Shown here one piece after another: positions 429-10,439 of a stretch of 25,534 bases of DNA. Under the pieces are notes generated by a model. The model worked only from the letters and a program-made list of their open reading frames with translations. It was not told the origin of the DNA and did no database searches. Numbering within the stretch: the stretch's first letter is position 1; the number at the start of each line of letters is the position of its first letter. The DNA is from a virus (taxonomy: Duplodnaviria; Caudoviricetes): the IMG/VR virus record IMGVR_UViG_3300011339_000787, positions 1 through 25,534 of that record, one strand, 5' to 3'. Position numbers and translations under genes: made by a program.

Positions 429-611
429 GCCGTCTCTCCGGCTGTCACACCACTGCATCGACCGAGTATCCCGGTCCGTGCCACCGGCATGGAGCCAGTA
501 TGGCAGGTGTCGCAAATTAAGTGACCCGCCGGTTTGAGGAACGCTCTCGCGTCTAGCCTTGGCGGGTCTGGTGCCGTCTCTCCGGCTGTCACGCCTCACT
601 GTTCGTGGCGT
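429..611 (-). ncRNA. Candidate structured RNA with two copies of a stem + GACA + GCCG-GAGAGA-CGGC hairpin motif
   Basis: Exact 20-nt direct repeat at 429-448 and 573-592; each copy follows a closing stem (ACGCC/GGCGU versus ACACC/GGUGU). Central 8-bp stem GACCCGCC/GGCGGGUC capped by ACGC-GAGA-GCGU. Confidence 0.55.
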
Positions 612-1487: not shown

Positions 1488-1511
1488 ATTGGGTCGATAT
1501 AAAAACGCTTT

Positions 1512-1772
1512 CTAGGGCTGTTTCTGCCCCGCCATGAGGTGGTCTAGCTTTTCTTCAAGGTCAACCATACGGGCTGGCCATATGATTTCGCACCCGATGC
1601 AGTTTTCATGCGACCGGGAGAGGTCGAGTCGAAGTGCGTCATTAATGGCAATCTGCCGTTCCAACTTGCGGGCTAAGTCCTGGGCGGCTACGTACACGTC
1701 GGCTTTGGTCACGTTGGCTAGGTCTAGGGTCATGGTCTGTAGTCGGTTGGTTTTAATGCGAACTTTAGACAA
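1512..1772 (-). CDS. Hypothetical protein (86 aa)
   Basis: Operon tiling; 8-nt overlap with the initiator gene. Confidence 0.65.
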   Translation of the reverse strand: MSKVRIKTNRLQTMTLDLANVTKADVYVAAQDLARKLERQIAINDALRLDLSRSHENCIGCEIIWPARMVDLEEKLDHLMAGQKQP

Positions 1773-8246: not shown

Positions 8247-8452
8247 CGTGTCAGGCGAAGGATGACCCCCACGTTGATGATTGTCAGTGCGGCAAAAATC
8301 AGCGCCTCTACCATGTCATTGGCGCCAGCGAGGGCCAGGATGTCGACGATGGCCAGCATCCAAAAACCAGCGGAAAACAAGATGCTGTGCTTGCGTTTGT
8401 TGGGCGGCGGTGTCGGGCCCTGAAAAGGGCGGGAGTAGTGTGAGGTGGACAT
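8243..8452 (-). CDS. Small two-TM membrane protein (69 aa)
   Basis: Two hydrophobic stretches (ILFSAGFWMLAIVDILALAG; ALIFAALTIINVGVIL); start reassigned to ATG 8452. Confidence 0.65.
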   Translation of the reverse strand: MSTSHYSRPFQGPTPPPNKRKHSILFSAGFWMLAIVDILALAGANDMVEALIFAALTIINVGVILRLTR

Positions 8453-8457
8453 GGCAA

Positions 8458-8682
8458 TTAGGCGAGCTGAAGGCTGTAGCTGCGCCCGCCGTCCCAATGG
8501 CCCTCGGTTGCCACCGCCAGATCTGCCACTGCCTGGGGCAGGTCGCTGAGGTCGTGACCCCTCCACAGGTCAACGTGCAGCGTCGGAGTGGAGTCCTCCG
8601 CAGAGTATTCGCAGACCGCCACATGGGCGGCTAGTTCTGCGGGAATGAGTGCGGCAATATCAGTCAGGAATGCAGTGTTCAT
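8458..8682 (-). CDS. Hypothetical early protein (74 aa), first gene after the ribozyme
   Basis: A-rich leader, operon tiling. Confidence 0.65.
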   Translation of the reverse strand: MNTAFLTDIAALIPAELAAHVAVCEYSAEDSTPTLHVDLWRGHDLSDLPQAVADLAVATEGHWDGGRSYSLQLA

Positions 8683-8711
8683 TTTGTTCTTGGTTCATTG
8701 TTCACTCTGAC

Positions 8712-8763
8712 GGCCTCGTCAGCACCCGCCTTACGGGTGGACGCCCCCTCGGGCGTTTCGGCC
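8712..8763 (-). ncRNA. Type II hammerhead ribozyme
   Basis: Minus strand GGCC-GAAA-CGCCC(GAGG)GGGCG-UC^CACCCG(UAAGG)CGGGUG-CUGACGA-GGCC: all core nucleotides (CUGANGA, GAAA, GUC) and three stems present; intergenic and sense to flanking genes. Confidence 0.92.
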
Positions 8764-8767
8764 TTAA

Positions 8768-8989
8768 TTAAGAGTTTAGACGGGCATTCACAATGTGCTT
8801 TGCCATCTTCAGGCTAGCCTCACTGTCACTCATATTCTCCTCTCCGGGAGCATAAATATTCCACTCAACCTGTCCCTCCGCGTCGTTCAAAGACGCGTAG
8901 TCAAATCTGCGGATCGTGTAGCCCCTGTAAAGGTATTCTCCGGCTGTTATTTTCGTGGCTGTGTGCTGTTGCTTCTTGGTTGCTTTCAT
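8768..8989 (-). CDS. Hypothetical early protein (73 aa), predicted leaderless
   Basis: ATG 7 nt downstream of a TAAGAT -10 box; KITAGEYLYRGYTI is a small beta-rich phage-type sequence. Confidence 0.7.
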   Translation of the reverse strand: MKATKKQQHTATKITAGEYLYRGYTIRRFDYASLNDAEGQVEWNIYAPGEENMSDSEASLKMAKHIVNARLNS

Positions 8990-8996
8990 GGCGCTG

Positions 8997-9046
8997 ATCT
9001 TAGTCGGTTGCGTACGGTTGGCTAGCTTTTTGTAAGATTATTTTTA
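8997..9046 (-). promoter_or_regulatory. Early promoter P1: AT-rich UP element, TAGCCA-N16-TAAGAT
   Basis: -10 at 8997-9002, -35-like at 9019-9024; shares an exact 20-mer (9011-9030) with P2. Confidence 0.7.
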
Positions 9047-9052
9047 AGGGGG

Positions 9053-9077
9053 AAAGGAAGCCCCCCTTGCGGGGGGC
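9053..9077 (-). terminator. Intrinsic terminator after the 60-aa gene
   Basis: GCCCCCC-GCAA-GGGGGGC hairpin followed by UUCCUUU. Confidence 0.65.
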
Positions 9078-9084
9078 GGGTGGT

Positions 9085-9267
9085 TTAGTTTTTGCGAAAA
9101 ATCTCAGAACCAATGTTGAGATATTCAGCGTCTAGTTTTTTGAATAAATCCCATTGGCAGAGGCTGGCGGCCACCAAGGCCAGTCGCTTGACCATCTGCT
9201 GCTTGTCTTCAAGCGTTGTGATTTTTTCGATTTTTGCGTGGAAGGCGATGTAGTCGTTCGTTGTCAT
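9085..9267 (-). CDS. Hypothetical early protein (60 aa), monocistronic and predicted leaderless
   Basis: Bracketed by promoter P2 (ATG 6 nt after the -10) and a terminator. Confidence 0.7.
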   Translation of the reverse strand: MTTNDYIAFHAKIEKITTLEDKQQMVKRLALVAASLCQWDLFKKLDAEYLNIGSEIFRKN

Positions 9268-9836: not shown

Positions 9837-10439
9837 CTACTCGCCAGCCGGTACAAGTCCAGCCTCGAACAGTTCGGCCTCCTCGCGGCGGCGCCTGCGC
9901 AGCCCTGCGGTGTCAGGCCAGAGCCGCTGCATTTCGCGAATCGCGTGCGGAATCTGTTTTAGCTCACCTACGCGGAGCAGACCTTGAATTTCGGCCATCT
10001 CCCTGCGCCGGTCGCCCGTCAGGGATGCGCCACGGTTGAACACCATCGACACGAGCGCCGCAGCACAATCGCCCGGCAGCTCCACAACCTGCGGCCAAAT
10101 GCGGAGCGTCCGCATGTACCAGGTCGGCAGCGTCACGGTCTCGAAGACGGCCATGGCAGCGGCCCAGGGTACTACTAGATGCCTGACATGTGGGAGGACT
10201 ACCTGCGCTTGCTCGCCCTTGCGCCCCGAGACGCTCACCAGCAGCGCCAGCGTTGCAGAGTCTAGATGCGGCACCCATGCTCGGCTCGTCTCGGTGGCAG
10301 GAGTATGGCCTAAGTCCCAGCCGATGCCGATGGTGATGCCAGACTGCTCGCCCGGCCATTCGGGGTTGCGGTCGTAACAGGATTCGCCTCCTGTCTCCCA
10401 GCCGATGATTGATTTGATGCCGCGCTCACTAAGATTCAT
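9837..10439 (-). CDS. Endolysin, lysozyme-like (GH24/pesticin-C type muramidase)
   Basis: IIGWETGG (catalytic Glu position), SGITIGIGWDLG, ALVSMVFNRG, GLRRRRREEAELF. Confidence 0.85.
   Translation of the reverse strand: MNLSERGIKSIIGWETGGESCYDRNPEWPGEQSGITIGIGWDLGHTPATETSRAWVPHLDSATLALLVSVSGRKGEQAQVVLPHVRHLVVPWAAAMAVFETVTLPTWYMRTLRIWPQVVELPGDCAAALVSMVFNRGASLTGDRRREMAEIQGLLRVGELKQIPHAIREMQRLWPDTAGLRRRRREEAELFEAGLVPAGE

Follow-up and report, generated by a model that had tools for sequence, protein, structure and literature searches.

A conserved tail complementary to the catalytic core of a type II hammerhead motif between small phage genes

The locus and its ribozyme

The window analyzed here, a 25,534-base virus record, carries on its minus strand head, tape-measure, and tail genes, followed by small genes and then by replication and recombination genes, which encode an exonuclease, a Holliday junction resolvase, a RecT-like annealing protein, a helicase, and a replication initiator. 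On that strand, the gap between an ORF of 73 aa (stop at 8770-8768) and an ORF of 74 aa (start at 8682) is filled by a type II hammerhead ribozyme, which matches Rfam model RF02276 at 8763-8705 with 40 bits (gathering score 37; E 4.7e-5). No second hammerhead was found in the window. The elements of the locus are as follows.

8997..9025, minus strand: putative early promoter, CTAGCCAACCG ... TAAGAT, a repeated motif 7 nt before the ATG at 8989
8768..8989, minus strand: upstream ORF, 73 aa, with a TAA stop 5 nt ahead of the 5′ arm (GGCC) of stem II
8764, minus strand: conserved A directly before stem II, from the sampled hammerheads
8760..8763, minus strand: 5′ arm of stem II, GGCC, from the RF02276 match and the fold
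8741..8759, minus strand: core strand GAAA, with the 6-bp hairpin of stem III and its loop GAGG, from the RF02276 match and the fold
8739..8742, minus strand: cleavage triplet GUC, with the cut predicted between C8740 and C8739 by the hammerhead consensus
8723..8739, minus strand: stem I hairpin (6 bp, loop UAAGG), which would be the extreme 5′ end of the 3′ product, from the RF02276 match and the fold
8716..8722, minus strand: catalytic core strand CUGACGA, doubling as the 5′ arm of the masking hairpin, from the sequence and the RF02276 match
8712..8715, minus strand: 3′ arm of stem II, GGCC, which supplies the loop and closing base of the masking hairpin, from the fold
8707..8711, minus strand: masking tail GUCAG (CGUCAG with C8712), complementary to core positions 3-8, from covariation and enrichment in relatives
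8683..8706, minus strand: leader of 24 nt, A/C-rich and without a Shine-Dalgarno motif, from reading the sequence
8458..8682, minus strand: downstream ORF, 74 aa, heading the same-strand run of exonuclease, resolvase, RecT-like, helicase, and initiator genes

Read along the minus strand from 8763 to 8707, the element runs GGCC, GAAA, CGCCC-GAGG-GGGCG, and UC up to the predicted cut and CACCCG-UAAGG-CGGGUG, CUGACGA, GGCC, and GUCAG after it. The consensus positions are filled by CUGACGA (8722-8716, for CUGANGA), GAAA (8759-8756), and GUC (8742-8740, the NUH triplet), and loops close off both stem I and stem III with stem II open, as RF02276 requires.

Homologues of the 73-aa ORF, which had no match in PHROG or Pfam, occupy the same slot at related loci (L033, L036, L053, and L063), and homologues of the 74-aa ORF sit behind the same ribozyme in L053 and L065. 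A second copy of the CTAGCCAACCG ... TAAGAT motif lies with equal spacing at 9302-9274 (minus strand), before the ATG at 9267 of the preceding ORF. The two copies are probably tandem early promoters giving near-leaderless messages (6-7 nt to the ATG); they were not among the promoters reported by a promoter consensus scan of the window. Between them lies a terminator-like hairpin of 7 bp, all GC (9077-9060, minus strand). Inside the 73-aa ORF, an in-frame ATG at 8833 has a strong GAGGAG motif ahead of it and could open a 21-codon peptide with the same stop (8843-8768, minus strand). The leader contains an out-of-frame ATG whose 12-codon frame overlaps the start of the downstream gene (8698-8660, minus strand), and a Shine-Dalgarno motif was found in none of the 20 own-clade rows with a called start. 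Elsewhere in the window, a 200-aa ORF (9837-10439, minus strand) adjoins the late gene block; it has no match in PHROG or Pfam, and by eye it may resemble a phage lysozyme. The abiF RNA model gave a weak match at 524-566 (minus strand; 29.2 bits, below the threshold of 37).

Among named phages, no relatives were found for 8400-9100, and the ribozyme alone gave only short weak matches. The window's exonuclease found a match in neither of the two Spartobacteria-labelled assemblies that carry such ribozymes. One metatranscriptome contained 0.07 of the words, in 18 contigs that were mostly less than 90% alike and gave almost no cover of 8660-9079.

The masking hairpin and its conservation

The original prediction held that the core strand could be hidden by a hairpin formed with the sequence just 3′ of it, and we confirmed six Watson-Crick pairs on the minus strand between CUGACG (8722-8717) and CGUCAG (8712-8707), across AGGC (8716-8713). 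As had also been proposed, this hairpin excludes stem II, and it is present in the minimum-energy fold of 8770-8705 (66-mer; -30.6 kcal/mol); the description of the 4-bp stem II as weak was mistaken, GGCC/GGCC being the strongest stem II in the sample. Evaluated as defined structures, the active fold is at -27.2 and the masked fold at -29.4 kcal/mol, a difference of ~2 kcal/mol in favor of masking in an energy model that omits the core and tertiary contacts, which favor the active fold. The saddle between the two lies at -17.3 kcal/mol, ~10-12 above them. In the model, the hairpin has a probability of 0.96 with the 5′ arm free and 0.98 in the 3′ product, where it forms one of two flush hairpins, and in wider context the probability of stem II is 0.008-0.09. 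The hairpin reaches the base of stem I and goes no further, and 24 nt separate the element from the start codon. Pairing of 8775-8771 with 8708-8704, an extended stem II which was the minimum fold in one 96-nt window, had a probability of ~0.1 or less in others, and was not evident among the relatives, was treated as incidental. At the base composition of the window, the chance of finding CGUCAG within 11 offsets is ~0.003; the decisive evidence against chance, from sequence comparison, is conservation and covariation in relatives.

We searched for hammerheads with patterns that did not include the tail, to avoid bias. Set 1 (stem II GGCC) was drawn from viral scans run separately for each class of base at core position 7 (for U, 127 of ~180 stretches; for C, 125 of ~250; for purines, all 35) and from a genome scan (123 of ~190 stretches); after we required paired stems and removed duplicates it held 220 viral and 44 genomic rows, most genomic matches having failed the stem test. 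Set 2 (other stem II sequences; 126 of ~1400 plus 130 of ~700 stretches) gave 243 rows from 256 loci. The two sets together comprise 507 distinct hammerheads among the matches listed, and since sampling was stratified and confined to those matches, the frequencies below are not population values. Clusters built on similarity of the flanks, a common locus, and identity of stem I numbered 242, one of which comprises 167 rows. We took no frequencies from a scan for the exact 16-mer, in which 117 of 130 matches lay in a hammerhead context, because its design makes it biased.

Among the matches listed, R-UCAG was present within 19 nt after stem II in 114 of 507 rows versus 19 in a distal control window, and in the first viral parse of listed matches N-UCAG was present in 69 of 228 (shuffle mean 10, maximum 21). 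The base before UCAG followed core position 7: over the 507 listed rows we counted C:G 62, U:A 47, U:G 5, and C:A 0, with nine rows having another base before UCAG. Within the listed matches, set 1 alone gave 40:0/2:25, and set 2 alone, with its other stem II sequences, gave 21:0/3:23, an independent replication. When one tailed member was taken from each of 50 listed clusters, the counts were 22:0/4:24 (p 2e-10), and the covariation of the 3′ complement that had been suggested as a check is present in homologous phage hammerheads. Near-identical pairs change at both positions together (L209/L334 and L172/L320). In the window's own clade, all 22 unbiased rows among the matches listed mask the core, 17 by GUCAG and 5 (L266, L289, L300, L341, and L355) by a shifted register, a 7-bp hairpin of GACGAGG with CUUCGUC of the same stability (-8.1 to -8.7 kcal/mol), own-clade hairpins all falling between -7.7 and -9.2 kcal/mol. 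Another masking register (CUCR with YGAG) showed a weak trend only (11:3 vs 5:7) and is not claimed. These comparisons indicate that the tail recurs and covaries with the core in dozens of unrelated phages and that the hairpin is a selected RNA structure.

The strength of the hairpin was matched to that of stem II. In all 114 of the tailed matches listed, the masked fold is more stable than the active secondary structure (median 2.2 kcal/mol, middle range 2.0-2.6, full range 0.4-6.3), and over 50 listed clusters hairpin strength tracks stem II strength with a rho of 0.69. Because the hairpin and stem II share one base, the test was repeated on arms ending in C, which gave a rho of 0.66 over 42 listed clusters. 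With a weak stem II, the strong C-G hairpin was found in 3/77 listed rows versus 20/92 for the weaker U-A form; with a strong stem II, the listed rows held the C-G hairpin in 42/117 and the U-A form in 19/118. At the cluster level the matching has a p of 0.006, and tail-less clusters have no such pattern. Pairing between the base that follows the tail and the final base of stem I is also avoided (2 observed vs 10.9 expected in 50 listed clusters), and the listed tail-less rows show no deficit of stem I extension (73/384 vs 73.2 expected). We infer that hairpins that would abolish the active fold have been selected against, which implies that the ribozyme must still fold with the tail present.

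The position of the start codon also follows the hairpin. Among the matches listed, a start codon lay <16 nt from the element in 1/36 tailed versus 41/155 other clusters (p 0.001), and the listed clusters of set 2 alone agree (0/19 vs 22/90). In the five shifted-register relatives the start codon is 38-41 nt after stem II, having moved back ~10 nt with the hairpin, and of the 15 remaining own-clade rows that have a called start, 14 place it 25-33 nt after stem II. Since the start codon is kept clear of the hairpin and moves back with it, the hairpin probably exists in translated RNA. The modeled openness of the initiation region was 0.78 with the tail and 0.72 with the tail shuffled (better in 49/57), a small gain, in related rows, from a comparison that is partly built in.

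Proposed cutting and closing, and the competing readings

We read the type II hammerhead motif with its selected second fold, at about even confidence, as a device that would cut and then close, giving the operon a uniform 5′-OH end regardless of the upstream gene. The precursor would exchange between the active and masked folds, with tertiary contacts in magnesium repaying the ~2 kcal/mol so that it still cleaves, perhaps more slowly, after GUC, between C8740 and C8739. Displacement by the tail would next eject the 5′ piece, to which only four pairs hold, and the core would close into the hairpin, blocking religation. The downstream message would start with a 5′-OH and two flush hairpins, followed by an open 24-nt leader, and would be translatable, and the replication and recombination operon would get the same 5′ end whichever small gene is upstream. 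Such an element would likely be a natural counterpart of the engineered RiboJ insulator. Of the three mechanisms originally put forward, refolding after cleavage fits best, with the hairpin dominant in the predicted 3′ product, stem I not invaded, and the start codon clear; several points speak against its extension here to cutting and closing. The tail is not needed for processing as such, since about three quarters of the sampled type II hammerheads have none; a 4-bp stem II should release its product unaided; the 5′ end is already capped by stem I; and cleavage may be much reduced, given that the masked fold is the more stable in every tailed match listed and the active fold is rare in the wider-context model.

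The genes around the element are exchanged on both sides. Upstream, 35 ORFs from 37 related loci together with the window's own (36 sequences) fall into 22 protein groups; these loci were drawn from the tail-bearing scan, five of them added by eye from leader resemblance. At one locus, L034, the masking hairpin (1501-1516, minus strand) and the leader lie directly behind a promoter-like motif, without stem III or the GAAA strand (the 5′ half of the ribozyme); this is a single case and may reflect a recent deletion. The promoter-like motif of L034, at about 1548-1523, has an inverted copy ~185 nt further upstream, and for this reason the motif may be an operator too.

The main rival, which we consider a tentative possibility, is that the hairpin acts mainly before the cut, as a rheostat: a masked precursor would cleave slowly or partially and so set the ratio of intact to processed early message or delay processing. 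The uniform preference for masking among the matches listed, with its narrow middle range around the median of 2.2 kcal/mol, fits this reading, and the saddle is low enough to allow exchange between the folds. Of 30 multi-ribozyme loci among the matches listed, 21 lack tailed copies altogether, 7 carry both kinds, and 2 have only tailed copies, the mixed loci also being in keeping with a rheostat. The narrow range is, however, inflated by one large clade (the full range extends from 0.4 to 6.3), and the energy model omits the very contacts that would favor the active fold. Hairpin strength that is matched to stem II and capped fits a rheostat and cutting followed by closing equally, whereas the avoidance of stem I extension is left unexplained by a rheostat alone. 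The two readings are compatible, and both may hold.

The position of the upstream stop codon bears on a second rival, a ribosome-gated switch, in which a ribosome terminating at 8770-8768 would cover the 5′ arm and let the core fall into the hairpin, so that cleavage occurs only when upstream translation is low. Consistent with this, a constrained fold with bases blocked down to 8759 gave the hairpin a probability of 1.0, and among the matches listed the stop of a long ORF lay ≤8 nt from the 5′ arm in 42/48 tailed and 103/136 other rows, versus 0 and 3, respectively, in a window 50 nt further upstream. The excess of stops in tailed clusters was clear in the listed matches of set 1 (26/28 vs 69/112, p 0.001) but did not replicate in those of set 2 (15/21 vs 73/105, p 1.0), leaving a p of 0.04 for the sets pooled, and tail-less hammerheads abut stops too (122/189 listed clusters), as genome compactness would explain. 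The hairpin is, moreover, favored already without a ribosome, and the upstream gene is freely exchanged. The proposal of a ribosome-gated switch is thus weakly supported, the stop enrichment standing in set 1 and failing in set 2, and we consider it quite unlikely. We take an abutting stop to be a family-wide trait, perhaps one of compactness, and no proof of gating. With or without the tail, roughly two thirds of the sampled type II hammerheads, or more, have a long ORF that ends ≤8 nt from the 5′ arm, often in a TAG overlapping it. A broader version, in which these are widespread phage hammerheads that can be switched, the masking tail being balanced against stem II, and an outside input, most plausibly a ribosome terminating at the abutting stop, decides whether the early polycistronic message is cut, would make them ligand-free, translation-gated switches; we regard it as unlikely.

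A strict cotranscriptional window, also part of the original prediction, would confine cutting to the interval after stem II has emerged and before the tail has, with molecules that miss the window staying uncut. The active fold is complete 5 nt before the hairpin can form, and five nucleotides of transcription take well under a second. That span is short against rate constants of about one per minute (>1.2 per min for a tested type II hammerhead, in the part of PMC3088659 available), and a pause would be needed, although viroid hammerheads have been argued to be selected for cotranscriptional cleavage (available part of PMC1636495). The apparent selection against over-strong hairpins fits poorly, as it is not expected if the tail need only win late, and before the tail is made the upstream coding sequence mispairs with the core (modeled stem II probability 0.001). 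We therefore find this reading very unlikely.

The 16-mer is also a perfect inverted repeat in DNA, at a site of gene exchange, and could in principle serve as an operator or a site of recombination, or have arisen neutrally by template switching, and lack any role in RNA. This reading is largely refuted and extremely improbable. The spacing between stem II and the tail varies from 3 to >10 nt, the listed matches contain G-U wobbles but never C:A (5 vs 0) as well as five G-U variants at core G5 among the tailed rows, and the second register replaces the first within the same clade, all of which argue for an RNA hairpin rather than a DNA site. The tail is absent from all 37 listed hammerheads with a purine at core position 7. 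For the other core strand, no enrichment of the complement is seen (of 264 among the matches listed, 5 upstream, 3 downstream, and 2 control), which argues against template switching.

The single A before the 4-bp stem II, which was not part of the search pattern, is present in 264/264 hammerheads among the matches listed (8764 in the window), and after the 6-bp stem I the first base of loop I is U in 68/69 listed tailed rows (8733 in the window). We take A8764 to be the likely partner of this U in a tertiary contact of the kind known from hammerhead structures, and the invariant A and loop I U suggest a pseudoknot-free subclass held by one U-A tertiary pair. That the tail is instead the usual type II pseudoknot partner of loop I, its complementarity to the core being accidental, has almost negligible probability: such pseudoknots are the published norm (available part of PMC3088659) and loops like UGACG could pair with the tail, but at least 4 loop-tail pairs are possible in only 12/69 listed tailed rows and impossible in the window (UAAGG with GUCAG), 31 loop I sequences co-occur with the nearly fixed tail in those 69 rows, and the tail tracks core position 7, not the loop. 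We do not file the window's ribozyme in the pseudoknot subclass of type II hammerheads.

Relation to known hammerheads

For type II hammerheads of bacteria, phages, and prophages, the proposed role was the cleavage of long transcripts to yield shorter mRNAs (Perreault et al. 2011, PMC3088659, in the part available), and the window's ribozyme resembles them in its core, its permutation with an open stem II, and its place between small variable phage genes. In that set, so far as the available part describes it, the tail forms an activating pseudoknot with loop I; in the window, by contrast, the partner of the tail is the catalytic core, and their pairing is incompatible with the active fold. 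We found no description of a core-masking tail in the available part of PMC3088659 or in its searchable supplements, of which the alignment dataset was covered in part, and no mention of such a tail in the available parts of PMC3185496, PMC13725137, and PMC7761336. The full-text literature, in a search covering few subscription papers, likewise yielded no description, and the core-masking tail is real, selected, and apparently unpublished.

The bacterial role of hammerheads has been called largely elusive (PMC6765202). The type II hammerheads of Desulfovibrio vulgaris, as the available part of PMC8782182 reports, are active in vitro and in cells, with cleavage products detected in vivo, and share with the window the type II architecture, the CUGACGA core, and phage-like genes nearby. 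Unlike the window's ribozyme, the three each combine a short stem II with a pseudoknot-type AGCC tail and no R-UCAG, and they are for that reason no test of the masked variant. In RiboJ, according to the available part of PMC6993053, a hairpin placed after a hammerhead makes the 5′ end uniform and exposes the ribosome binding site, with reported message stabilization; the window's hairpin 3′ of the predicted cut may act in a similar way, given its spacing and a small predicted gain in openness. RiboJ is engineered and carries a 23-nt hairpin downstream of the core, whereas the window's hairpin is natural and built from the core itself and so can exist only instead of the active fold. Viroid and satellite hammerheads offer a further parallel, in that the core can be trapped by pairing of a CUGAU motif and the order of folding affects cleavage; those traps are described as avoided by evolution or are part of the global fold of a replicating RNA (available part of PMC1636495), unlike the dedicated five-base element found here in a DNA phage mRNA and kept by compensatory change.

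A conserved second fold that is matched in strength to the active fold and placed relative to the start codon means that the fate of the RNA around and after the cut is under selection. Since a single compensatory pair (core position 7 and the first base of the tail) switches the hairpin off or on with catalysis untouched, the purpose of these ribozymes is directly testable. At least two tail designs, an activating pseudoknot and a core mask, are hidden within Rfam-style models of type II hammerheads, and the latter offers synthetic biology a natural insulator that is compact, or a tunable ribozyme. On many contigs, more than one type II hammerhead lies between small genes (L019, L061, L124-L125, L536-L537, and others).
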